This document shows, piece by piece, positions 1-47,894 of a stretch of DNA of 50,432 nt; within the stretch, counting starts at the first letter, position 1, and every line of letters begins with the position of its first letter. A model generated the notes under the pieces. The model was not told the origin of the DNA, ran no database searches, and saw nothing but the letters and a program-made list of their open reading frames with translations. Origin of the DNA: Clostridia bacterium. Lineage in GTDB: Bacteria > Bacillota > Clostridia > Oscillospirales > CAG-272. The DNA is taken from assembly GCA_017414385.1 (NCBI GenBank), contig JAFQMO010000124.1, positions 1 through 50,432 of the forward strand, read 5' to 3'. Both the position numbers and the translations under genes were made by a program.

Positions 1-52
1 ATGAAAAAACAGCGAAAAATAGCCGCAGAAATCTCCAAAAGGGGACCATGAT

Positions 53-441
53 TCACCCCCAATAACAGAGGACATACAGCTTTCGTCATGAAATTAACGA
101 CAGTCTCTGCGCGCATCCTTCACCAAATCACCCCCAATAACAGAGGACATTACAAACACTGTCAAAGAAACAAGGACGAAAAAACCCCTTTGTTTCGGTT
201 TTTTCAGAAACACATCACCTCCAATAACAACGGACAGTATCATCTCAATATATGATTGTATTCGCGATAACAAAAGCATCGAAGCAGCGTTTTTCTGGCA
301 CCTCCAATAACGGGGGACATAATGTCCGCTGCCATTGCACCCCAAAACAGACCCCACATGCAATAAAACACCACATCACCTGCCATAAATCGGTACATCC
401 CTCCAATAAAAATGGACATATCCCCCAATAATAAAGGACAT
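53..441. repeat. Array of 23-bp imperfect direct repeats (iteron-like), consensus TCACC(C/T)CCAATAA-N5-GGACAT
   Basis: Copies at 53-75 and 128-150 (identical, TCACCCCCAATAACAGAGGACAT), 215-237, 298-320, 376-398, 397-419 and 419-441. Degenerate copies near 31-49 and 337-359. Start-to-start spacings are 75, 87, 83, 78, 21 and 22 bp. Confidence 0.9.
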
Positions 442-569
442 TCGGTTTTTGTGAGGAACGCGAAAACCACTTATATTTCGGGATTTTTACGTTATTATTG
501 TCTACTGTTTTTTTCTGTAAGTATATGTATGTATGTGTATGTTACTTGTATGACGGTATTTGCGCGTGC

Positions 570-598
570 TTGACAAAAAACTCCTTTTCTTGTATTCT
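570..598 (+). promoter_or_regulatory. sigma-A-type promoter for the Rep-like gene
   Basis: TTGACA (570-575), 17 bp, TATTCT (593-598). Strong RBS GGAAGGAGGGG at 690-700 before ATG 705. Confidence 0.6.
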
Positions 599-704
599 AT
601 ATACTGATATATCTTAAAATGCGATCGTTGTCTTGTATCGACCACAAATTTTGACTGCATTCGAAATTGCTTGACAGATACTGATCATAGGAAGGAGGGG
701 TTAT

Positions 705-2051
705 ATGTCCGCATCAGAGTATACAACTGCAAAAAAGACGGCTTCTGTCGATGTTGTTCCGTTTTTTCGGCTGTCCAATCTGCATATCACAGGTACGATG
801 GCTTCCAATGTGTGTGCTGATACCTCTTTGAATATGGGATTTTCTTCCTTGCGTGACCTCGGTCTTTATTCTATGATCGGTGCATTGCTCTCCAACCCCT
901 CCTTTACTTATGCCTCCGGCGGTCTTCAAAAGCTCCTTTTAATGCATTGTAAAAATAGATATTTCAGTCTTCACGCTTCGTTTAAAAGACTCCAAGAGAC
1001 CGGATACCTACTTCGTACACGTATTCCCATGGGCAAAAATTGCTTCCGTGATTACTACACATTGTCTCAAAATACGCAGAATACGCCATCTCCGGCCGTT
1101 CATCTTCGTCGTGCACAATCAAAAGCATTTCTTTCCGCATATCAACCCTTCACGCCTCCAACCGAAGATTTTACCAAGATTTCCATACCAATGCTGATGG
1201 ATCCGCGTCTCTCATTATCTGCCAAAGGGTTATATGCCGTGATTGCGCGTTTTATCCGGATTTCCGAGTATTCATCTGCCTGTATCATATCAAAGGATAT
1301 GCTCAGAAAGGTATGCAAGGAAGGGCATAACGCATTTGACCGTATTTTTCGAGAACTCCGTTGTGCAGGTTATCTCTCTTTGATCCGCGTAACCGATGCA
1401 AGAACAGCAAAGCCTCGTTATTTGTATGTGCTTTCAGCAACAGCCTCTCAGGTAGATCCTATTTCCAATGAGGTATGCCAGGTACGGCAAAAAACGTCTT
1501 CTGTCCGTATCGAGAAACAGCAAAATAGGCCTGTTGATCAGCGCAAAGCGGAGCCTCCGCATCTGGATCCAAATCCATCCATCTCGCAAAATCAAGCGAT
1601 TATCTCCACACATATACAGCCTCAATCGATGTCAGAGATCGAAAAAACGGTTCGTGAACAGATTGAGTATCCTTGTTTGTGTGAGGAATACCCGACAGAA
1701 AAGCTGAACTGTATCGTTTCCATCATATCCTCCTTCCTACATAGCGCCGCCACAGACAGAGCTGTGGTCGGATCAAACAAAACTCAAGGGAAAACCGTTT
1801 CCTTGGGACGAAATACCGTTCTTTTCTCGGAAGTAAATGAGCGTTTCAAGCAGCTTGACAGTGAAGATATCCGTTTTGTTTTGGATTCCTACACACAAGC
1901 CTCCAAAAGTGTAAAGATCCGGAATCTGCGTGCGTATCTCACAACCTGTCTCTTCCATGCAAAAGAAAACCTTGCCTTGGCATTGGAATCTCTTGCCGAC
2001 ACTGTTCCCGGATCGACGGAGAAACTTCATCCCCCATGTCCATCTCAATAA
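705..2051 (+). CDS. Putative replication initiator: two tandem winged-HTH domains plus a C-terminal DUF6017-like domain
   Basis: Two related segments (SLRDLGLYSMI...FKRLQETGYLLRTR and FTKISIPMLMDPRLSLSAKGLYAVI...FRELRCAGYLSLIR) resemble phage/ICE initiator N-terminal HTHs. The C-terminus (VREQIEY...EVNERFKQLDSEDIRFVLDS...IRNLRAYLTTCLFHA) resembles the DUF6017 domain of Firmicute Rep proteins. Good RBS. Confidence 0.7.
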   Translation: MSASEYTTAKKTASVDVVPFFRLSNLHITGTMASNVCADTSLNMGFSSLRDLGLYSMIGALLSNPSFTYASGGLQKLLLMHCKNRYFSLHASFKRLQETGYLLRTRIPMGKNCFRDYYTLSQNTQNTPSPAVHLRRAQSKAFLSAYQPFTPPTEDFTKISIPMLMDPRLSLSAKGLYAVIARFIRISEYSSACIISKDMLRKVCKEGHNAFDRIFRELRCAGYLSLIRVTDARTAKPRYLYVLSATASQVDPISNEVCQVRQKTSSVRIEKQQNRPVDQRKAEPPHLDPNPSISQNQAIISTHIQPQSMSEIEKTVREQIEYPCLCEEYPTEKLNCIVSIISSFLHSAATDRAVVGSNKTQGKTVSLGRNTVLFSEVNERFKQLDSEDIRFVLDSYTQASKSVKIRNLRAYLTTCLFHAKENLALALESLADTVPGSTEKLHPPCPSQ

Positions 2052-2143
2052 GAGTTCGCATCTGCAACAATAAAAATCCCAGCCTTGTGTCATCATGATA
2101 TGTCACAGGGCTGGTTGTGTTGCTATACATAAGAAAATCACAT

Positions 2144-2192
2144 AAAAAAGGAAACACAGACACGCTTGTTTTTGTCTGTGTTTCTTTTTTTT
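2144..2192 (+). terminator. Intrinsic terminator downstream of the Rep-like gene
   Basis: GAAACACAGACA-loop-TGTCTGTGTTTC followed by a T-run. A second hairpin CCAGCCTTGTG...CACAGGGCTGG lies at 2079-2114. Confidence 0.7.
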
Positions 2193-2417
2193 CCGATCGT
2201 GCAAGCTCACGTGCAGAAGCTTCGGCGCTATGTCTCATGCGCAACCCGTTTCTTCTCTCTTTTTTCCTAGCTTTTTTCAGGAATTCATTGCCCCTCGAAT
2301 TTCAAAAGGATGGGAAAAATAGGGATGGAAAATGAATGAATGAATGACAAAAGCATGATAATTTTCCGGATGAAAAAATGGACAATGGCAATGGGATGGA
2401 TGAAATTTTACTGCAAA

Positions 2418-2458
2418 TTATTATATCCCTTGTTATTATATCCCATAACAATTATATC
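2418..2458. repeat. Short AT-rich direct repeats TTATTATATCCC
   Basis: Exact copies at 2418-2429 and 2433-2444, partial copy ATTATATC at 2451-2458. Confidence 0.7.
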
Positions 2459-2504
2459 TTCATCTTCTTTGTGACATTACAACAGCAGAAAGTGAGAAAA
2501 TCCC

Positions 2505-2533
2505 TTGACATTTTAAGAAAAACATGGTATACT
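2505..2533 (+). promoter_or_regulatory. sigma-A promoter of the ileS leader
   Basis: TTGACA (2505-2510), 17 bp, TG-extended TATACT (2528-2533). Confidence 0.85.
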
Positions 2534-2552
2534 AAATCAAAGATAATGCTGC

Positions 2553-2810
2553 AAAAATGATGACGAAGACAGTATGTATTGACCAAAGGTATCCACAGAG
2601 AGTCAGCAGGGGTGAGAGTTGACGTTACCGTTGATACAGAAAATCACTTCCGAGTTGCAAATCCGAAAGGAAGTCTTTTCCGATTAAGATGCGCCGGATC
2701 CGCCGTAAAAGGACACGTCTGTTGGGACTGTGGAAATAAAACAGCTGAATGTCTCTTTAGAAAGGCAATGTTCAGACCTGTTCCGATGTCTCGGGGCCGG
2801 TCTTTTCTTT
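2553..2810 (+). ncRNA. T-box riboswitch (Ile specifier AUC) upstream of ileS
   Basis: Stem I hallmarks: GA motif, AGTA...GAA loop-E, AGAGAG bulge, GGTGAGA distal loop and specifier ATC at 2643-2645. Terminator AGACC...GGTCT plus T-run at 2774-2810. Confidence 0.8.
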
Positions 2811-2880
2811 ATGCGGGAGCTTTGTTATTTAGATGAGCGTTTGTATAAGCAATCAAAACAATAAAAAAGGGAGTCTGCTT

Positions 2881-5800
2881 ATGTTGTATGAAAAAGTGTC
2901 GACAGGTATGAATTTTGTTGACAGAGAAAAAGAAATCGAAAAGTTTTGGCGTGAAAATCGGATTTTTCAAAAAAGCATCGATATTCGTGAAAACGGACAG
3001 GAATATACTTTTTATGATGGTCCCCCCACAGCAAACGGAAAGCCGCATATCGGACATGTTTTGACCCGTGTCATCAAAGATATGGTTCCCAGATACCGTA
3101 CAATGAAGGGATGTCATGTCCTCCGTAAGGCGGGATGGGATACACACGGTCTTCCTGTTGAGCTTGAAGTAGAGAAATCCGTCGGAATTGAAGGAAAGGA
3201 TCAGATCGAAGCGTACGGTCTTGAGCCGTTTCTTGGCAAATGCAAGGAATCTGTCTGGAAATATAAAGGGATGTGGGAGGATTTCTCCGCAACGGTCGGC
3301 TTTTGGGCAGATATGGAGGATCCTTACGTTACCTATCATAATGAGTTTATCGAATCTGAGTGGTGGGCATTGAAGCAGATTTGGGACAAAGGATTGCTTT
3401 ACAAGGGCTTTAAGATCGTTCCTTACTGTCCTCGTTGCGGCACCCCCCTTTCCTCTCATGAGGTTGCACAGGGCTATAAGACGGTAAAAGAAAGATCTGC
3501 GATCGTTCGTTTCCGTGTTGTCGGTGAGGATGCGTATTTTCTTGCATGGACAACAACCCCGTGGACACTGCCTTCCAATGTTGCGTTGTGTGTCAATCCC
3601 AATGAAACCTACTGTAAGGTAGCGGCAGGAGACGGAAGGACCTACTATATGGCAAAGGCACTTCTGGACACTGTCCTTGGCAGCTTGAAGACAGAGGATG
3701 CGGCAGCATATGAGATCCTTGCCGAGTATACAGGTACAGATTTGGAGGGGCGCGCATATGAGCCTTTGTTTGAATGTGCGGGAATCTGTGCGGAAAAGCA
3801 GAATAAAAAGGGCTTTTACATTACCTGTGATGACTACGTTACAATGAGTGACGGTACCGGTATCGTTCATATTGCACCTGCATTCGGTGAAGATGATGCT
3901 AATGTTGGCAGAAACTACGATCTTCCGTTTGTACAGTTTGTTAACGGAAAGGGTGAAATGACGGAGGAGACTGCATATGCAGGTGTCTTTGTTAAGGATG
4001 CTGATCCGCTGATCCTTCGTGATCTGGATGCGGCTGGGAAACTGTTTTCCGCGCCGAAGTTTGAGCATGATTATCCCCATTGTTGGCGCTGTAATACACC
4101 GCTGATCTATTATGCGCGTGATTCTTGGTTCATCAAGATGACAGCGGTCAAGGATCAGCTGATCCGTAATAACAATACCGTTCATTGGATTCCCGAATCC
4201 ATCGGAAAGGGCCGTTTTGGCGATTGGCTTGAGAATATTCAAGATTGGGGTATTTCCAGAAACCGCTACTGGGGAACACCGCTCAATATTTGGGAATGTG
4301 AATGCGGACACAAACATGCGGTCGGTTCCATTGAGGAGCTGAAATCGATGTCCGATGATTGTCCTTCTGAGATCGAGCTTCACAGACCCTTCATCGATGC
4401 GGTAACGCTGCGCTGTGAGAAGTGCGGCGGCAAGATGCACCGTGTTTCTGAGGTTATCGACTGTTGGTTTGATTCGGGCTCGATGCCCTTTGCACAGTGG
4501 CACTATCCCTTTGAGCATAAGGAAGAATTCCATGAGCATTTCCCGGCAGACTTCATCTCGGAGGGTGTTGATCAGACCCGCGGTTGGTTCTACTCGTTGA
4601 TGGCGATCTCCACCTTGCTCTTTGACTGTGCCCCCTATAAGAATGTTCTTGTCCTCGGCCACGTACTTGATAAGGATGGTCAGAAAATGTCCAAGTCCAA
4701 GGGAAATGCGGTCGATCCCTTTGAAGCATTACAGACATACGGCGCTGATGCGATTCGTTGGTATTTCTATTCCAATTCCGCTCCGTGGCTTCCTAACCGC
4801 TTCTATGCGGAGGCGGTGACGGAGGGCCAGCGCAAGTTTATGGGTACACTGTGGAATACGTATGCGTTCTATGTTCTCTATGCAAATATTGATGGCTTTC
4901 ATCCGATGTCTTACCGTCTTGATGAGGATTCGCTCGGTGTTATGGATCGTTGGATCCTTTCTAAGCTGAATTCAACGGTGAAGAAGGTCGACGAGAATAT
5001 GGATGCTTACCGTATCCCCGAGACCTGCCGTCTTTTAACAGATTTCATTGATGAGCTTTCCAATTGGTACGTCCGCCGTAATCGTGAACGTTTTTGGGCG
5101 AAGGGAATGGAGCAGGATAAGATCAATGCGTATCTCACACTGTATACTGCGCTTGTAACGATCTGTAAGGCTGCTGCACCGATGGTTCCCTTTATGACAG
5201 AGGATATTTACCGCAACCTTGTCTGCCGTATTGATCCGACAGCACCGGAAAGCATTCACCTTTGTGATTATCCTGTTGCAGACGAAGCACGGATCCTTCC
5301 CGAGCTTGAAAAGGATATGGATGACGTCCTTTCTGTTGTCGTACTTGGCCGTGCTTGCAGAAATCAGGCCAATATCAAGAACCGCCAGCCGGTTGGCTTG
5401 GTTTATGTTAAGAGCGATTTCTCCCTTCCTGTTTTTTGCTGTGATATCATTGAGGATGAGTTGAATGTCAAGAAGGTCGTTTTTACAGATAACGTTCGTG
5501 ACTTTACAACGTATTCCTTTAAGCCGCAGATGCGTACCTTAGGTCCGAAGTACGGTAAGCAGCTGAATGCGATCAGACAGCTTCTGACGGAGGTTGACGG
5601 CAATGCTGCAATGGATTCGCTTGATTCTGTCGGCTCGATCACCTTGAAGCTTCCCGACGGAACCGATGCGATTTTGACAAAGGAAGATCTTCTGATTGAA
5701 ATGACACAGAAGCCCGGATATGAATCCGTTTTCGATCGTGGAATTACCGTGGTGATCGATACGAATCTGACGCCGGAGCTTTTGGAAGAAGGTTTGGTAC

Positions 5801-6036
5801 GAGAGATCGTATCCAAGATCCAGACAATGCGTAAGGATTGCGGCTTTGAGGTTATGGATCACATTGAAATCGGTGTCGCACAGAATGAAGTAATTGAGAA
5901 CATCATGAGAAAGTATGCGGAGGATATCTGCGCAGATACACTCTGTGACTCGATTGTATACGGAGAGACCGGTGAAAACGAAAAGAATTGGAATATCAAC
6001 GGACAGAATGTCATGCTTTCTGTAAAGCAGCTTTGA
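2881..6036 (+). CDS. ileS: Isoleucyl-tRNA synthetase (type 2, archaeal/eukaryote-like)
   Basis: DGPPTANGKPHIGH, GWDTHGLP, WTTTPWTLPSN, DWGISRNRYWG, EGVDQTRGWF and KMSKS motifs. Start moved to ATG 2881 after the GGGAG RBS. The Ile T-box upstream agrees. Confidence 0.97.
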   Translation: MLYEKVSTGMNFVDREKEIEKFWRENRIFQKSIDIRENGQEYTFYDGPPTANGKPHIGHVLTRVIKDMVPRYRTMKGCHVLRKAGWDTHGLPVELEVEKSVGIEGKDQIEAYGLEPFLGKCKESVWKYKGMWEDFSATVGFWADMEDPYVTYHNEFIESEWWALKQIWDKGLLYKGFKIVPYCPRCGTPLSSHEVAQGYKTVKERSAIVRFRVVGEDAYFLAWTTTPWTLPSNVALCVNPNETYCKVAAGDGRTYYMAKALLDTVLGSLKTEDAAAYEILAEYTGTDLEGRAYEPLFECAGICAEKQNKKGFYITCDDYVTMSDGTGIVHIAPAFGEDDANVGRNYDLPFVQFVNGKGEMTEETAYAGVFVKDADPLILRDLDAAGKLFSAPKFEHDYPHCWRCNTPLIYYARDSWFIKMTAVKDQLIRNNNTVHWIPESIGKGRFGDWLENIQDWGISRNRYWGTPLNIWECECGHKHAVGSIEELKSMSDDCPSEIELHRPFIDAVTLRCEKCGGKMHRVSEVIDCWFDSGSMPFAQWHYPFEHKEEFHEHFPADFISEGVDQTRGWFYSLMAISTLLFDCAPYKNVLVLGHVLDKDGQKMSKSKGNAVDPFEALQTYGADAIRWYFYSNSAPWLPNRFYAEAVTEGQRKFMGTLWNTYAFYVLYANIDGFHPMSYRLDEDSLGVMDRWILSKLNSTVKKVDENMDAYRIPETCRLLTDFIDELSNWYVRRNRERFWAKGMEQDKINAYLTLYTALVTICKAAAPMVPFMTEDIYRNLVCRIDPTAPESIHLCDYPVADEARILPELEKDMDDVLSVVVLGRACRNQANIKNRQPVGLVYVKSDFSLPVFCCDIIEDELNVKKVVFTDNVRDFTTYSFKPQMRTLGPKYGKQLNAIRQLLTEVDGNAAMDSLDSVGSITLKLPDGTDAILTKEDLLIEMTQKPGYESVFDRGITVVIDTNLTPELLEEGLVREIVSKIQTMRKDCGFEVMDHIEIGVAQNEVIENIMRKYAEDICADTLCDSIVYGETGENEKNWNINGQNVMLSVKQL

Positions 6037-7224: not shown

Positions 7225-7240
7225 TGTTTCACGTGAAACC
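7225..7240. promoter_or_regulatory. parS (ParB/Spo0J binding site)
   Basis: TGTTTCACGTGAAACC matches the consensus TGTTTCACGTGAAACA at 15/16 and has a perfect 14-bp palindromic core. Intergenic. Confidence 0.8.
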
Positions 7241-27578: not shown

Positions 27579-28147
27579 TATGATTTCGTGATTGGGTAGG
27601 GGAGCGTTTTGGGATATTCGCCGCGTGGATCGAGCGATCGGAGATAGGCAAAGCAAGCATCCTCTCCCTCGTTGGCAAGCATGCAAAAAAGAGATTCAAG
27701 AAGCAGTGCGGTTTCTCTGTGCATCTCGTTTCGGTCGGGTCCGGAACGAAAATACTGCAGGGGATGGTTATTGTCATATTTTTCGCCGCGATAAATCTTG
27801 GATGCGGCCACACGGTCGCAAAACATCTCCATAACAAAGCGCAAGGGCATTTTGATGGGGACATTTGTTTTTTCCAGCTCGGAAAAATCACGCCAATACT
27901 CGAAGTGATGTCTGTTACGGCCCTTGTGATGCATCCATGCGGAGGAGTAACCCTTTTCTTCTCTTTCCGCGGCGTTGGGACTGCGTCGCCCCTGAAAATA
28001 ATGTGCACCTGCAAAAAACTCTGCCGGTGAATACTTGGACAGATCGTGAAGCAGCCCCTGCAGACCGATACCGGCTCGAAAGCAATGCACGATAACACGG
28101 TGTCTGTGGCGGGTGATCACGAGAAAATGCTTGATGGGATGGCTCAT
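27578..28147 (-). CDS. DUF5662-like HD-type protein
   Basis: ITRHRHRV, GLLHDLSKYSP and AWMHHKGRNRHHFEYW motifs. ATGA overlap with the recombinase gene. Confidence 0.7.
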   Translation of the reverse strand: MSHPIKHFLVITRHRHRVIVHCFRAGIGLQGLLHDLSKYSPAEFFAGAHYFQGRRSPNAAEREEKGYSSAWMHHKGRNRHHFEYWRDFSELEKTNVPIKMPLRFVMEMFCDRVAASKIYRGEKYDNNHPLQYFRSGPDRNEMHRETALLLESLFCMLANEGEDACFAYLRSLDPRGEYPKTLPYPITKS

Positions 28148-29244
28148 GTCGGCGGTTCCTCTTGGGTATTTTTTTTCGTTCTCATTTGAAATACGTTTCT
28201 GTGGCGGAGCAGGTTTTCCGTTGATTCCTCCACATAGTATTGCTTTGTCGTGTTGACATCATTATGGCCGAGTGCTTGTGCAACCAAAAAAATATCTCCT
28301 GTTTCGTTATAGAGCTCGGTTCCATATGTTTTGCGGAGCTTGTGCGGTGTAATATGTTCCTTGGTGCCGATCAAAACGGTATATTTGCGGACCAATGCCT
28401 CGACGGTCTGTACACACATCCTTCTCCTTCGTTCAGACAGAAACAGTGCATCTTCATCAAGCGGAGAGGCGGGAGTGATGCTTTCACGAAGCTGTAAATA
28501 ATCTTTGATTGCGGCAATAACCTCGTCACTGAGTGCGATCCGTTGCCGCTTGGCACCCTTTCTATCGACCTCCAAAATGCAGTTCTCCAGATCCAGATCG
28601 GAGATATTGATGCCGACACATTCGGATACACGGATCCCTGTGCCGAGCAGGATGCTGAAGATGGCAAGATCCCGTACCTTATTTCGTTCCAGAGCGGACC
28701 GTTGCCGTTTGGAAAGAGAGCCTGACACGAGCGATTGTGCCGTTTTGGCACCACCTTCCACGGTATCGAGGAGCAGGGGGATCTCCTTTGGCTGAAGCTT
28801 TACCATATGTGTTGCGTTTTTGGACTCGTTTTTTGTGATTTTTTCGGCTTTATCCAGGGGATTTGCTGTCAAAAGATCTTTGCGGATCAAGTACAGAAAA
28901 AAAGAATTCAAGCAACAGAATTTTCGGTGGACACCTGCATAATGATTTCCGGTGCTCCATAGATATGCGACATATGCATCAATATCTGAACCACGCAGCG
29001 CTGCCAGCACATCAATGGTGATCTCAGAAAGTGCATCTCCCGGCAGCGACGACGTTGTGTCACGCAGCCAGAGGAAAAAATGACGGATGTCATACGCATA
29101 GGAAAGTCTTGTTTTTGCAGTGGAGTTTCCTTTTCTCATAGAGAGATATGCGGCCACGAACGGCGGAAGGTCACGGCAGATGGCAAAGGCTTTTTCGTCG
29201 ATCATATCATCATTTTGCGCGCGGTAGCTTCCGGGCTTTGCCAT
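28144..29244 (-). CDS. Tyrosine recombinase (XerC/XerS-like)
   Basis: Complete catalytic set: GIRVSE (R), RKG (K), TPHKLR (H-x-x-R), LGH and TTKQY (Y). N-terminal SAM-like region TRLSYAYDIRHFF. Confidence 0.9.
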   Translation of the reverse strand: MAKPGSYRAQNDDMIDEKAFAICRDLPPFVAAYLSMRKGNSTAKTRLSYAYDIRHFFLWLRDTTSSLPGDALSEITIDVLAALRGSDIDAYVAYLWSTGNHYAGVHRKFCCLNSFFLYLIRKDLLTANPLDKAEKITKNESKNATHMVKLQPKEIPLLLDTVEGGAKTAQSLVSGSLSKRQRSALERNKVRDLAIFSILLGTGIRVSECVGINISDLDLENCILEVDRKGAKRQRIALSDEVIAAIKDYLQLRESITPASPLDEDALFLSERRRRMCVQTVEALVRKYTVLIGTKEHITPHKLRKTYGTELYNETGDIFLVAQALGHNDVNTTKQYYVEESTENLLRHRNVFQMRTKKNTQEEPPT

Positions 29245-31678: not shown

Positions 31679-34465
31679 ATGGGACTGATTGATAAACTTT
31701 TTGGAACATACAGTGAACGTCAGGTAAAGAGACTGATGGGTACGGTTGCGCGTGTTGAGGCACTTTCTGATAAATATAAGGGGATGTCGGACGATGAATT
31801 GAAGAAGCAGACCGCAAGACTGAAGGCTCGTCTGCGTGACGGAGAAACGTTGGACGATATTTTGCCCGATGCATTTGCCGTTGTCAGAGAGGCGGATGAG
31901 CGTGTATTGAACAAGCGGCCCTTCCAGGTTCAGGTCCTTGGCGGTATCGTTATTCATCAGGGACGTATTGCCGAAATGAAAACCGGTGAGGGTAAGACAT
32001 TGATGGCAACAATGCCTGCTTACCTGAATGCATTGACAGAGAAAGGCGTTCATATTATCACAGTCAATGATTATCTTGCACGTGTCGGTGCCGAAGAAAT
32101 GGGAAGAGTATATGCATTTTTGGGATTGAAGACAGGTCTTGTTGTGCACGGCATGTCGAAGCAGGAAAAAAAGGATGCATACAATGCGGATATTACCTAT
32201 GGTACTAACAATGAGTTTGGTTTTGATTATCTGCGTGATAATATGGTTCTGTACAAGGAGGAGATGGTACAGCGCGGACACGTTTTTGCGATTGTTGACG
32301 AGGTAGACTCGATTTTGATCGACGAAGCGCGTACACCGCTTATTATTTCCGGTCAGGGTGAAAAGTCAACGATGCTGTATGACTTGGCTGACCGTTTTGT
32401 GCAGACACTCTCCTGCTATAAGGTCAAGGAGATGGATGACAAGGATGATATGGAGGAAATCCAAGAGGATTACCTTGTCGACGAAAAGGCGAAAAATGCT
32501 GTTTTGACCGGTAACGGTATCAAACGCGCAGAGGAATATTTCCATGTTGAGGATTTTTCCGATCCGCAGAATTCCGCACTTGCGCATCATATCAATCAGG
32601 CTCTTCATGCGCATGGTTGTATGCAGCGCGATGTTGACTATATTGTGAAAAAGGATGAAAACGGCGAGGAAAAGGTTGTTATCATCGATGCATTCACCGG
32701 ACGCCAAATGCCCGGAAGACGTTATTCCGACGGTCTGCATCAGGCGATCGAAGCAAAGGAGCATGTTAAGATCGAGCGCGAGTCCAAGACCTTAGCGACG
32801 ATTACCTTCCAGAATTTCTTCCGTCTTTACAAGAAGCTTTCCGGTATGACCGGTACTGCTCTGACTGAGGAAGAAGAGTTTCGTGAGATCTATAACTTGG
32901 ACGTTGTTGTCATTCCGACCAATAAGCCGATGATTCGTATTGACCATCCGGATTCGGTCTATAAGAATACCCGCGGCAAATATCGGGCAATTATTGATCA
33001 GATCAAGATCTGCTATCAAAAGGGACAGCCCGTTCTTGTCGGTACGGTTTCCGTTGATAAGTCAGAGTATTTGTCCGGTCTGCTGAAGAAGGAAGGGATC
33101 CCGCATACGGTCTTGAATGCCAAATACCATGACAAAGAAGCGGAGATCGTTGCGGAGGCAGGTAAGTTTAAGGCGGTTACCATTTCGACCAACATGGCAG
33201 GTCGAGGAACGGATATTCAGCTCGGCGGTAATCCCGAATTTCTTGCAAAGAGAGAAATGCGTACGATGGGTTATGCGGAGGAGGTTATCATCGATGCAAC
33301 CGGTACATCTGTTTCCGTAAGTGAGGAGGCAATGGCCGCAAGAGAGATTTTCTACTCTCTCTATAGGAAGTACAGAGATGAGATCGCACCCGAGGCAAAA
33401 AAGATTTGCGAGCTTGGCGGTTTGTTTATTATCGGTACGGAACGCCATGAATCCCGCCGTATTGATAATCAGCTGCGAGGACGTTCGGGACGTCAGGGTG
33501 ACCCCGGCGAATCGCGTTTCTATCTCTCCTTTGAGGATGATCTGATGCGTTTGTTCGGTTCAGACCGTATATTGGGGGTTGTTGAAAAGCTTGGTCTTGA
33601 AGAGGATCAGCCCATCGATGCGCGTATTCTTTCCAATTCCATTGAAAGTGCACAGAAAAAGCTTGAAAGCATCAACTTTGAACGCAGAAAGAATGTGCTT
33701 ACCTATGACGATGTTATGAATCAGCAGCGTCATGTCATCTATTCTCAGAGACAAGAGGTTTTGGATGGTGTAGATATCAAGGATAAGATCCAGAAGATGA
33801 TCTCCGAAACCATCGTGAATGCTGTCAACAGCTTTACGACCGCTGAGGTTGCAGATGACTGGAACTTTGACGGCCTGCGTACGTATTTCTTTGGTACGCT
33901 TTGCAGGGCGGAGGATTTCCACTATACTGCGGATGATTTCAATACCTTGCAGAGAAAGGATCTTGTAAAGATCCTTCAGGAGCGTGCAGATGAGGTCTAT
34001 GCAGAAAAAACTGCTTTGTTTGGAGATGAGTCGCTGCGTGAGATTGAGCGTGTGGTCCTTCTGCGCAACGTAGATACCAGATGGATGGATCACCTGGATG
34101 CAATGGACGATCTGAAGGGAAGCATCCGTCTTCAGGCGTATGCACACAGAAATCCCGTAACGGAATTCCGTCTGCAGTCCGGTGATATGTTTGATGAAAT
34201 GATCGACGGCATCAAGGAAAGCACGACACGCACATTGTTGTCCATCATCCCCTCCAACCGTGAGATCAAGAGAGAAACGGTCGCGAAGGCAACCTCCGAG
34301 GGCTTTGAGGGAGGAGAATCTCTGACACCCGCTGCTCCTGCTTCGCCGTCTGCTCCGAAAAAAGCAGATGGCTCTAAGGTTGGAAGAAATGATCCCTGTC
34401 CTTGCGGAAGCGGGAAAAAGTATAAGAAATGCTGCGGCTTTAATCCCGCAGAGCCCGATGCATAA
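31679..34465 (+). CDS. secA: Preprotein translocase subunit SecA
   Basis: EMKTGEGKT, IVDEVDSILIDEARTPLIISG, TNMAGRGTDI and RRIDNQLRGRSGRQGDPG motifs, plus C-terminal GRNDPCPCGSGKKYKKCC. Confidence 0.98.
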   Translation: MGLIDKLFGTYSERQVKRLMGTVARVEALSDKYKGMSDDELKKQTARLKARLRDGETLDDILPDAFAVVREADERVLNKRPFQVQVLGGIVIHQGRIAEMKTGEGKTLMATMPAYLNALTEKGVHIITVNDYLARVGAEEMGRVYAFLGLKTGLVVHGMSKQEKKDAYNADITYGTNNEFGFDYLRDNMVLYKEEMVQRGHVFAIVDEVDSILIDEARTPLIISGQGEKSTMLYDLADRFVQTLSCYKVKEMDDKDDMEEIQEDYLVDEKAKNAVLTGNGIKRAEEYFHVEDFSDPQNSALAHHINQALHAHGCMQRDVDYIVKKDENGEEKVVIIDAFTGRQMPGRRYSDGLHQAIEAKEHVKIERESKTLATITFQNFFRLYKKLSGMTGTALTEEEEFREIYNLDVVVIPTNKPMIRIDHPDSVYKNTRGKYRAIIDQIKICYQKGQPVLVGTVSVDKSEYLSGLLKKEGIPHTVLNAKYHDKEAEIVAEAGKFKAVTISTNMAGRGTDIQLGGNPEFLAKREMRTMGYAEEVIIDATGTSVSVSEEAMAAREIFYSLYRKYRDEIAPEAKKICELGGLFIIGTERHESRRIDNQLRGRSGRQGDPGESRFYLSFEDDLMRLFGSDRILGVVEKLGLEEDQPIDARILSNSIESAQKKLESINFERRKNVLTYDDVMNQQRHVIYSQRQEVLDGVDIKDKIQKMISETIVNAVNSFTTAEVADDWNFDGLRTYFFGTLCRAEDFHYTADDFNTLQRKDLVKILQERADEVYAEKTALFGDESLREIERVVLLRNVDTRWMDHLDAMDDLKGSIRLQAYAHRNPVTEFRLQSGDMFDEMIDGIKESTTRTLLSIIPSNREIKRETVAKATSEGFEGGESLTPAAPASPSAPKKADGSKVGRNDPCPCGSGKKYKKCCGFNPAEPDA

Positions 34466-42939: not shown

Positions 42940-44040
42940 ATGGATCGTCGAAAAGAGCTGAGTGAACGCAAAAGAGCCATTCTGAAAGCGGTTGTTGATG
43001 TTCACATCAAGCTCGGTGAACCGGTTGGCTCCAAGTTTTTGACACAGAATGAGCAGATCGCACTTTCGAGTGCTACGATACGCAATGAGATGGCAGAGCT
43101 TGAGGAAATGGGCTATCTGGAACAGCCGCATACATCCGCAGGCCGCGTTCCTTCGCGTGCGGGATATCGTTTGTACGTGGATTCCCTGATGAACCGTTAT
43201 CCGATCTCCATGCAGGAAACTGAGGAGCTGAACGCCTTGATGCGTTCCAAGATCGATGCGCTTGATCAGCTTCTGGAACAGGCGGGGAAGATGGTCTCTC
43301 TTTTGACCAATTATACTTCGCTTACCATGAAGGCAGGCGGTATACAGGCTTGTGTCCGAAGATTTGATGCAGTTTGGATTGATCTGCGCAGCTTTATCTT
43401 GGTTTTGACGTTGGATGCGGATGAAGTTCGTTCTAAAACGATCCGTGTGCATCAGGATGTTACGCGTCAGGTGCTTGAGAAGCTGATGACAGTTCTCAAT
43501 GAAACGATCGCGGGGATCCCGATGGAGCAGGTCAACCTGCCTCGGATGGTTGAAATGGAAGCTGCAATGGGTGACGATGCATTTGTCATATCACCGGTAA
43601 TCAAGTATGTATATGAGATGATCGGGATGACGGAGCATTCAGAGTTGCATTTTGAAGGCGTGAATAAGCTGCTGCAACATCCGGAGTATACTGACATCAG
43701 TCGTATGCGCGAGATGTTTGACGTATTCGAAAAGAAGCAAGAGATCATGAACGTCATGACGAATGCAAAGAGCGAGGGCGTCAATGTTATCATCGGCGGG
43801 GAGACTACGGTGAGGACGATGGAGAATTCCACTTTGATTTTCAAAAATCTTGTGGAAAACGGCAGGGTCGTCGGTGCGATCGGTGTAATCGGACCGTGTC
43901 GAATGGATTATTCTAAGGTTGTAACATTGATCGAATGCATGACAGATCGTTTGTCTGAAATGCTGACGGGGGAAACGCCTACGGAAAATATGTTACCCGG
44001 ACATTTTGGACCGCCGAGTGAACAGGAGAATGGTTCATAA
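42940..44040 (+). CDS. hrcA: Heat-inducible transcription repressor HrcA
   Basis: EPVGSK, SSATIRNEMAELEEMGYLEQPHTSAGRVPS and GVIGPCRMDY motifs. CIRCE upstream. Confidence 0.96.
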   Translation: MDRRKELSERKRAILKAVVDVHIKLGEPVGSKFLTQNEQIALSSATIRNEMAELEEMGYLEQPHTSAGRVPSRAGYRLYVDSLMNRYPISMQETEELNALMRSKIDALDQLLEQAGKMVSLLTNYTSLTMKAGGIQACVRRFDAVWIDLRSFILVLTLDADEVRSKTIRVHQDVTRQVLEKLMTVLNETIAGIPMEQVNLPRMVEMEAAMGDDAFVISPVIKYVYEMIGMTEHSELHFEGVNKLLQHPEYTDISRMREMFDVFEKKQEIMNVMTNAKSEGVNVIIGGETTVRTMENSTLIFKNLVENGRVVGAIGVIGPCRMDYSKVVTLIECMTDRLSEMLTGETPTENMLPGHFGPPSEQENGS

Positions 44041-44078
44041 CGGTGGTGACCGCGGTCGAAAAAGAAAGGACGAATAAT

Positions 44079-44642
44079 GTGATGAAAAACAAGGAAAAAA
44101 TCAAGGAAACAGAAGAAACGACAGAGGCAATTCCTTCTGAGGGACAGGATCCGCAGCAGAATGATTCCGAGCCCTGCTTTGATGCAGAGGCGTTGCAGGC
44201 GGAGCTTGCATCTGCCACAGCGGCATTGGCTGAGGAAAAGGATAAGTATTTGAGAATGGCAGCGGAATATGACAATTACCGTCGTCGTGCGGCAAAGGAG
44301 AGAGAAACGGTATACAGTGATGCATACGCGGATGCGTTGATGCAGATCCTGCCGGTGATCGATAATCTGGAGCGTGCAGCGGGCTTTGGTGATGTCGGAG
44401 ATGCCAAACAGTTGGCGGACGGTGTGAATATGATCTTGAATCAGTTCGGTGATGTTCTCAAGAAGATGGGTATCGAAAGCTTTGGCGAAAAGGGTGATGC
44501 GTTCGACCCCAATATCCACAATGCGATCATGCATGAGGAGGACCCCGAGCAGGTAGAGAGCGTTTTGGGCGATGTATTCCAAAAGGGTTATCGCCGCGGC
44601 GATAAGATCATTCGCTGTGCGATGGTCAAGGTCATCAATTAA
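44079..44642 (+). CDS. grpE: Nucleotide exchange factor GrpE
   Basis: YLRMAAEYDNYRRR, LPVIDNLERA, FDPNIHNA and FQKGY...IRCAMVKV motifs. Start 44079 or 44082. Confidence 0.95.
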   Translation: MMKNKEKIKETEETTEAIPSEGQDPQQNDSEPCFDAEALQAELASATAALAEEKDKYLRMAAEYDNYRRRAAKERETVYSDAYADALMQILPVIDNLERAAGFGDVGDAKQLADGVNMILNQFGDVLKKMGIESFGEKGDAFDPNIHNAIMHEEDPEQVESVLGDVFQKGYRRGDKIIRCAMVKVIN

Positions 44643-44689
44643 ATCAAGCGTCAATTATTAAACTGTAATAGATCAAATTTTTATAATAA

Positions 44690-46516
<1,827 letters not shown>

Positions 46517-46558
46517 TTTTGATCGGCTGTATCCGGTGTTTGATACGGTATGATGCAG

Positions 46559-46593
46559 GATGGCGGAGGGCGGCAATGGCGTCTTCCGCCATC
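46559..46593 (+). terminator. GC-rich hairpin after dnaK (partial terminator or mRNA stabiliser)
   Basis: GATGGCGGAGGGCG...CGTCTTCCGCCATC with no strong U-run. Confidence 0.5.
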
Positions 46594-46754
46594 TGTGTGA
46601 CCTTGGATCAAGAATATTTGCCGTGTATAAAAAAATTAACAATTCAAGGTTGAATTCAGAACGATAGTTTGATATAATCACTCACATATGTGGTGTGTTT
46701 TTCATCAATTTCGGAAGAAATAAATGTATGCGGTGAGAAAGGGAAATCTGTTGT

Positions 46755-47894
46755 ATGGCAGAAACAAAACGCGATTATTATGAGGTGCTGGGGCTGCAAA
46801 AAACAGCGAGCGCCGATGAGATTAAACGTGCATATCGTCAGCTTGCCAAGAAATATCATCCCGATATGAATGCGGGCGATACGGACGCAGAACAGAAATT
46901 CAAGGAAGTCAACGAGGCGTATGCGATCCTTTCCGATGCCGATAAGAAGGCACGGTATGATCAGTACGGTCATGCCGGAGTCGATCCCAATATGGGTGGC
47001 GGTGGATTCGGTGGATTCGGCGGTATGGATTTTGACATCTCCGATATATTCGGAAGCTTTTTCGGCGGTGGTATGGGAGGATCCTCACAAGCGCGTCGAA
47101 ATGGCCCTACGCGCGGTGACGACATCCATTTACGTACGGCAATCTCCTTTGAGGAGGCGGCCTTTGGCTGTAAGAAGGATATTACCTATACCAAGGTAGA
47201 GAGGTGTGCGGACTGCGCGGGAACGGGCGCAGAGAAGGGAACCTCGCCGGAGCGTTGTACAAATTGTAACGGCTCGGGACAGATCCGGGTACAGCAGCGC
47301 ACGGCGCTCGGTGTTTTCCAATCCAGTCGTCCCTGTGATGTTTGCGGCGGAAGCGGTAAGATCATCAAAAATCCCTGCTCGGGCTGTAAGGGAAGCGGCT
47401 TCAGAAAAACCCAGAAAAAGATCGAGGTTTCGATTCCCGCAGGATGCGATGACGGAATGATGCTTGCTTTGCGTGATCAGGGGTCTGATGGCAGAAACGG
47501 AGGTCCCTCCGGAGATGTTATCATCACGGTTAATGTCAGACCGCACCATATTTTTGAGCGCGACGGTTACGATATTGCGTGTGAGATCCCGATTACGTTC
47601 CCGGAGGCTACCTTGGGAGCGGAAATTGATGTGCCGACGCTTGAGGGGGATGTGAAGTATACGATTCCCGAGGGAACACAGACGGGAACAACGTTTACTA
47701 TTCGCGGAAAAGGTATTCAGGTGATCAATTCCAAGAGCAAGGGTGATCTGCATTTCACCGTTGTGATCGAGGTCCCGAAGAGCCTCAGCGAGAAGCAGAA
47801 GGAGCTTTTGCGCGAATTTGGAGAGACCTGCGGAAAGAATAACTATACAAAGAAAGAAAGCTTTTTCAATAAAATATTTGGAAGCAGAAACTGA
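46755..47894 (+). CDS. dnaJ: Molecular chaperone DnaJ
   Basis: J-domain with HPD, G/F-rich region and four CxxCxGxG repeats. Confidence 0.98.
   Translation: MAETKRDYYEVLGLQKTASADEIKRAYRQLAKKYHPDMNAGDTDAEQKFKEVNEAYAILSDADKKARYDQYGHAGVDPNMGGGGFGGFGGMDFDISDIFGSFFGGGMGGSSQARRNGPTRGDDIHLRTAISFEEAAFGCKKDITYTKVERCADCAGTGAEKGTSPERCTNCNGSGQIRVQQRTALGVFQSSRPCDVCGGSGKIIKNPCSGCKGSGFRKTQKKIEVSIPAGCDDGMMLALRDQGSDGRNGGPSGDVIITVNVRPHHIFERDGYDIACEIPITFPEATLGAEIDVPTLEGDVKYTIPEGTQTGTTFTIRGKGIQVINSKSKGDLHFTVVIEVPKSLSEKQKELLREFGETCGKNNYTKKESFFNKIFGSRN

Follow-up and report, generated by a model that had tools for sequence, protein, structure and literature searches.

An iteron array in a CAG-272 genome of the Clostridia as the probable origin of an essential second chromosome with a predicted RctB/RepE-like initiator

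The repeat array at the left end of the 50,432-nucleotide stretch of Clostridia DNA analysed here (the window, which is the start of contig C68) probably consists of iterons bound by a 387-aa RctB/RepE-like initiator (hereafter Rep) and serves as the origin of an essential second chromosome of about 0.4 Mb or more. An iteron origin with a predicted initiator of this type is well supported by structure prediction, covariation of repeats and initiator, origin anatomy, and nucleotide skew. That the origin drives a separate essential replicon also appears probable to us, and likelier than a single chromosome with two origins, which we consider unlikely. The element is not an ordinary plasmid: in a whole genus of uncultured gut Clostridia it occupies a minimum of GC skew and is surrounded by core genes present in one copy.

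Anatomy of the repeat array

The original prediction of bipartite 23-bp repeats was correct for all seven units (starts 53, 128, 215, 298, 376, 397, and 419), which are separated by wide spacers of 52, 64, 60, and 55 bp and then by steps of 21 and 22 bp. Scored with a matrix of 59 copies taken from relatives only, with the window copies left out, six of the seven units reached 22–34 bits and the unit at 379 reached 4.7 bits; background sites of at least 5 bits numbered 0 per kb in 20 kb of the window, and none of at least 9 bits appeared in 100 shuffles of positions 1–705. Strong dispersed copies occupy positions 56–75 (34 bits), 131–150 (32 bits), 218–237 (25 bits, with a deviating last base), and 301–320 (33.5 bits), all on the plus strand. 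An inverted half-site is present as described, forming a pair at 315–327, and possibly belongs to a degenerate full inverted copy on the minus strand (322–343), in which the GGACA box is exact and the unit score (-4.7) is at background. Clear inverted copies occur in six of seven related arrays.

The tandem tier is indeed phased at 21–22 bp, but comprises four copies rather than the three first counted, all on the plus strand with steps of 22, 21, and 22 bp: two degenerate copies at 357–376 (-0.7 bits, marginal alone and initially missed) and 379–398 (4.7 bits), followed by copies at 400–419 (22 bits) and 422–441 (25 bits, the last iteron). Judged by eye, the copy at 357 shares its register with degenerate copies in all eight related loci, and the same four-copy array end is common to the window and these eight loci. 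Wide spacings between same-strand copies also follow a period of about 11 bp across loci, so that direct repeats in helical phase are found both in the 22/21/22 tier and among the dispersed copies. For gaps of 30–110 bp between same-strand copies of at least 13 bits, R was 0.71 (55 spacings) and 0.58 (34 spacings, three close loci dropped), with 0 of 2,000 simulations reaching these values; R is inflated by shared descent, and p was 0.001–0.004 when only distinct values were used.

The suspicion that the array continues to the left of the window was borne out by three further copies on contig C130. Position 18837 of C130 leads through 16 bases to window position 1 in contigs of all four public runs, which share one year and habitat and may represent a single campaign, and one 453-bp contig spans both sides of the junction. 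Contig depths, which do not represent copy numbers, were kept out of the argument. The end of C130 carries parB and parA (minus strand), the 387-aa gene (plus strand), and these further copies, the last of which lies 87 bp before the copy at 56–75 after the join. The full array spans about 0.9 kb between the 387-aa and 448-aa genes and holds nine strong direct, two degenerate, and one or two weak inverted copies, in a locus ordered parB-parA / rep - array - TGTA repeats - 448-aa gene - ileS. This cassette was intact on a single contig in seven of the ten loci found, an eighth begins within the array, and the remaining pair are partial, distant matches that lack it (these ten loci overlap with the 11 genus genomes in which rep was counted, and the two numbers are not additive).

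Matches to a strict pattern were confined to the array locus, as had been foreseen, with six in the window and three on C130 (n = 9 in this genome). Family-wide (151 genomes), three genus members had 9–12 matches each; outside the genus, one match each was found in 7 of 148 genomes, no more than with a reversed control pattern. A strong-scoring iteron-like site also lies far from the origin at G000:C5:785 (G000 being this genome), and one or two strict sites lie away from it in four of five relatives; a lone site of this type could conceivably act as a crtS-like checkpoint site.

The spacers are unique and Rep homologues occur on mobile-looking DNA, features that could suit a plasmid remnant lying dormant after integration, or a repeat-spacer array transcribed into guide RNAs. 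However, both ideas are largely refuted. Same-strand identical repeats with near-constant spacers, as in CRISPR-like arrays, were not found; spacers instead range from 0 to hundreds of bases, copies face either way along the DNA, and the centre of the unit is variable. The sole credible Rfam match in positions 1–3000 was a T-box leader (2551–2722, plus strand; RF00230, E = 9.4e-10, below the gathering score). The view that the array is neither coding nor a guide-RNA source was supported. Against a remnant, Rep is intact and 71–99% identical across genus loci (mean 83%), and skew flips exactly at the locus. The iteron-like architecture of a phased tier plus dispersed copies, already recognised in the original prediction, was upheld.

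Past the last iteron, a T-tract and moderately AT-rich spacer (442–514) leads to TGTA-type tetranucleotide repeats (515–552, plus strand) that are conserved in eight of eight related loci and likely constitute the DNA-unwinding element. These repeats lie some 55–75 bp past the last copy; AT content there is only 55–68% (68% over the 120 bp after that copy here, 55–64% in eight relatives). The TGTA pattern has a single occurrence each in this genome and in the examined DNA of a relative, G065, and GTA(A/T)GTA-like repeats follow the arrays of four of five array-bearing distant Rep loci (two by the strict pattern and two by eye; absent in the fifth). The 448-aa gene has a sigma-70-like promoter (570–598, plus strand) that matches 10 of 12 consensus positions, with a -35 hexamer that aligns across related loci. 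No DnaA box, with one mismatch allowed, was found in nine of ten array regions.

The predicted initiator and its 448-aa neighbour

We assessed which of the two genes flanking the array encodes its binder. For the model of the 387-aa protein (pLDDT 86.8), all three Foldseek matches at E ≤ 0.001 were to RctB domains 2–3 (best E = 6.6e-6), followed by RepE–iteron complexes (E = 0.001–0.1), and TM-scores to RctB were modest (0.35–0.38 by query length). The protein adjoining the array is therefore predicted to be of the two-winged-helix RepE/RctB type. Passages of a published study relate RctB domains II–III to the two domains of the Rep initiators of iteron plasmids, which bind the two halves of an iteron (PMC8565311). 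By sequence, the 387-aa protein matched no Pfam or NCBIfam family above cut-off (a weak Rep3_C match had E = 0.007), an alignment of Rep gave no meaningful match to solved structures, and a Pfam search of 66 Rep homologues yielded no family common to more than one member. Each of the 11 genus genomes has exactly one rep gene, which was also present in 2 of 296 genomes from other genera, and the Rep and ParB trees are congruent.

Repeat sequence changes with the initiator. Five of seven distant Rep homologues examined have a 21–22-bp array of different sequence directly downstream (the other two have none; an eighth locus, a fragment, was left out of this count), so the covariation of repeats with homologous rep loci that had been proposed as a check was observed. 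In these distant loci one motif recurs at both wide and tandem intervals, and no 448-aa homologue was found in the DNA examined, mostly under 5 kb per locus. One sequence deposited as phage (L087:1-4721) combines a Rep homologue, iterons, and TGTA repeats with a ParB-like gene and a primase-helicase-like fusion; these labels come from reading its sequence, and it appears to be a plasmid-like replicon of the same Rep family. Searching PLSDB with Rep returned a single record, from Anaerotruncus, which was rejected as a comparable origin (no array, non-replication neighbourhood).

The 448-aa gene (705–2051, plus strand) encodes two HTH-like repeats, a disordered linker, and a C-terminal DUF6017 domain. 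The original prediction had the repeats bound by this neighbour; the iteron-like nature of the sites and the two HTH-like repeats, which resemble each other (hhalign probability 94.8), both hold, but the assignment of the binder is not supported. In such a scheme, one HTH would contact each box and the 448-aa protein would be the initiator or a regulator, with the 387-aa protein acting elsewhere or sharing the sites. Adjacency to the array in eight of eight loci is in keeping with this scheme, as are look-alikes of the protein in the Atlas, among them one cluster labelled putative replication protein and others that carry HTH_36 and DnaD_N. Nevertheless, we judge it improbable, given that 448-aa identity between loci averages 49% and falls to 37% under an unchanged motif (compared with the mean of 83% for Rep), that no solved structure matched its model at E ≤ 0.001 in Foldseek (the DnaD N-terminal domain appeared only at E = 0.59), and that arrays track Rep homologues in loci lacking the 448-aa gene over the short stretches examined. 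The 387-aa protein, rather than the 448-aa neighbour, is thus the likely binder on the basis of its modelled fold, and the 448-aa protein is likely an accessory replication factor. Full-length members of the 448-aa family were confined to the genus among 151 family genomes, with partial 448-aa/DUF6017 matches in 16 others; homologues in contigs were recovered with an alignment query, a single-protein query having returned none.

Two origins and a linked gene pool

This genome also has a canonical oriC, on contig C44, with dnaA, up to nine DnaA boxes in 500 bp, and a skew flip. Judging by their sequences, its neighbours resemble recF and gyrase genes, and it has a parA/parB pair of its own; dnaA was present in five of five relatives. 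Cumulative skew in G065 has minima at dnaA on one contig and at the array locus on another, the latter after 175 kb of negative skew, along with one further minimum on C30 and more than two candidate maxima. The flip at the locus is weak in another relative, G144. Third-position skew passes from about -0.22 on C130 (left) to +0.17 in the window (right) on both coding strands, and hence reflects replication rather than transcription. Gene-strand bias was weak at both origins and uninformative.

Whether the second origin belongs to a separate replicon was assessed from gene linkage, using genes paired between this genome (75% complete) and about 2.0 of the 3.0 Mb of G065. Five G065 contigs (407 kb) formed one module at all four resolutions tried, with 101 of 513 ortholog pairs inside it and eight crossing. 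Although the same ortholog pairs served to choose the partner contigs of the module, circularity does not extend to the per-contig split: 11 of 63 contigs with at least three pairs had at least 75% of them inside the module, and the remaining 52 had at most 11%. Because Louvain clustering also finds modules on the main chromosome, we added a closure control, in which the module had 6 crossing and 17 internal links compared with 11–26 and 3–5 for other large-contig seeds; both its closure and its internal shuffling exceed those of the sets started from such seeds. Flank matches to this genome from G144 and a further relative, G152 (loci L043, L072-L074, L007), fell on module contigs in 20 of 20 cases. 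A Fiedler split was uninformative, and GC plus tetranucleotide clustering of this genome's own contigs gave a continuum with no two classes.

End overlaps in G065 support two joins (C7-C36-C29); three end joins are absent and the circle is not closed. The module size of about 0.4 Mb is a lower bound. The right arm enters a repeat common to two other contigs, with an ambiguous exit. Three contigs begin with the end of a 23S rRNA, making an rRNA operon on the replicon likely. Clusters of four to six DnaA boxes were also seen away from oriC on C31, C100, and C147 of this genome, and none on module contigs. GC content in this genome follows a steep gradient, from 54.5% near oriC (C44, C100) to 44% elsewhere (C145, C49).

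The replicon combines a plasmid-type replication and partition system (Rep, ParA, and ParB matches) with core genes that are normally chromosomal, found on both the window contig and the module. The only full-length ileS found (2833–6036, plus strand) follows the cassette in six of eight related loci (the other two end before it), and the window contig also carries the only secA found (31679–34465, plus strand), an hrcA-grpE-dnaK-dnaJ operon (42940–47894, plus strand), and htpG; ligA, obgE, greA, glyA, and pfkA lie in the module. One full copy each of ileS, ligA, and secA was present in five of five genomes (75–94% complete where given), with the module placement of ligA and secA checked in two. 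Carriage of the only secA copy found marks the replicon as essential. Its GC content is 2.0–2.6 points lower than that of the remaining DNA in these incomplete data (46.8 versus 49.4% and 45.0 versus 47.0%), outside the strict chromid criterion of 1 point from the chromosome given in part of one source (PMC12456017), and we accordingly term it a likely second chromosome rather than a strict chromid.

Alternatively, the same iteron origin and Rep could sit on the main chromosome, in one circle where DnaA-dependent and plasmid-derived origins are both active, perhaps joined via rRNA operons. This arrangement could account for the heavy core-gene load, the chromosome-type parS beside the origin (below), the continuum of GC, and the entry of the module arm into a repeat that the oriC contig shares, and the genus assemblies, none of which is closed, are compatible with it. 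Yet genes shuffle freely inside the module between species and almost never leave it, the G144 and G152 flanks fall on module contigs without exception, and a dedicated ParA/ParB pair, superfluous for a fused origin, is kept in all seven loci that reach the par genes. A genus-wide single chromosome is therefore unlikely, including one in which a DnaA oriC is accompanied by a domesticated RctB-like iteron origin that acquired a host parS and, in the 448-aa protein, an adaptor for helicase loading; if it did exist, it would be a bacterial counterpart of the multi-origin chromosomes of archaea.

Other observations on these genomes concern a recombinase and genome size. A XerS/XerC-like recombinase is encoded at 28144–29244 of the window, and both genomes have another paralogue outside the module contigs, possibly indicating one resolvase per replicon; a search for a dif-like pattern gave four scattered, unconvincing matches. 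The more complete genus genomes measure 3.0–4.2 Mb, compared with 1.5–2.6 Mb for most listed family members, and the 0.4-Mb replicon accounts for only part of this larger size.

Segregation, related systems, and implications

At 7225–7240 the window contains a palindrome with one mismatch to the consensus of chromosome-type parS. All six genus genomes have three or four such sites together on a single contig, which carries dnaA in each of the four checked, and one further parS elsewhere (two in one genome), which in three genus genomes lies on the origin contig at a distance of 7–10 kb. In other genera, 17 of 18 parS-bearing genomes have all sites on a single contig, and parS was found on the ileS contig in none of eight genomes. 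ParB-parS loads SMC according to passages of PMC13342612, and the lone parS by the second origin suggests how a plasmid origin may join host ParB-SMC segregation, a matter of wider interest for large secondary replicons.

No conserved palindrome or parS candidate was established as a ParB2 site in the regions examined. Together with the one or two iteron copies directly behind the par operon in this genome and four related loci, this could suggest that the dispersed copies form the centromere for ParB2, and that the phased tier alone serves replication. We regard such a division of labour as very improbable: a single consensus covers the dispersed and the phased copies, the unit has no palindromic symmetry, and the distant Rep loci show both kinds of spacing with a single motif. 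In this genome, a lone perfect iteron (L001:14165-14182) lies behind the parA-parB-orf131 operon beside a terminator-like hairpin and is possibly a copy-control site. The 131-aa gene (L001:14191-14586) overlaps the end of parB, is 55–67% conserved, and matched nothing in Pfam or NCBIfam; its product may be a third partition or regulatory protein. The parA-rep intergenic region on C130 (L001:16870-17090) holds two elements conserved in an alignment of eight loci. One is a pair of boxes with TGCA in inverted orientation; the other is a 16-bp near-palindrome, present two or three times, that resembles LacI/CcpA-type operators. Either may be the site of ParB2 or place the origin under catabolite control.

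Under the preferred reading of an iteron origin on an essential second chromosome, Rep monomers would read the two boxes of each unit through their two winged-helix domains, and Rep on the last four phased copies would open the TGTA tract. Rep would then hold a single strand there while the host helicase is loaded, possibly with help from the 448-aa protein, and forks would proceed bidirectionally from the array locus. Firing may be restrained, through titration or handcuffing, by the dispersed copies, which are phased too, and by the outlying copy that follows the par operon. ParA2/ParB2 would handle segregation of the replicon, onto which host ParB could load SMC through the one chromosome-type parS, 7 kb away.

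By analogy, the origin would work like the ori2/RctB system of Vibrio cholerae without being a member of it. Shared features are the predicted fold (RctB domains 2–3), regular iterons beside an unwinding element with 4-base repeats (ATCA in ori2), own par genes (ParAB2), and essential cargo; parts of two sources describe such 4-base repeats in the unwinding elements of Vibrio ori2 and RK2 (PMC11711613, PMC10316083). In contrast to the proteobacterial system, the array here lies downstream of rep, its 20-bp units, unlike the GATC-containing 12-mers of ori2, have no GATC in their consensus, the DnaA box is missing from nearly all array regions, and the 387-aa initiator lacks the large extra domain IV of the four-domain RctB. 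The locus further differs in its additional 448-aa gene and its parS of chromosome type, and no crtS- or 39-mer-like site was identified. RepE/Rep3 iteron plasmids (mini-F, and RK2 for the unwinding repeats) resemble the locus in their two-winged-helix initiator, as predicted here, their 21–22-bp phasing, and their extra dispersed copies; unlike them, the Rep described here falls in no family above cut-off and is fixed in the genus and not mobile, its tree congruent with that of ParB.

Chromids of Butyrivibrio and Pseudobutyrivibrio are likewise secondary replicons of gut Clostridia (Bacillota), but are given as 92–186 kb in part of one study (PMC5716241), compared with about 0.4 Mb here; the same passages place the GC content of the B. 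hungatei chromid 2.2 points below that of its chromosome. Replication proteins of Bacillota mobile elements with DUF6017, HTH_36, or DnaD_N share the C-terminal DUF6017 domain and the Atlas neighbours with the 448-aa protein, which differs in its duplicated HTH and its tie to this origin, and whose role in replication is putative.

Iteron chromids are described in beta- and gammaproteobacteria in passages of a 2018 review (PMC6090056), and our search of open-access literature for Clostridia/Oscillospirales chromids, DUF6017 replication, and multiple origins found no description of this system. If the reading is correct, it would represent an iteron-driven secondary replicon in Clostridia that is fixed in a genus and carries indispensable genes. 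A function would also follow for an initiator family that has no annotation and numbers 4,185 clusters at 50% identity, and the iteron and unwinding-element sequences could be used to find replicons in draft genomes.
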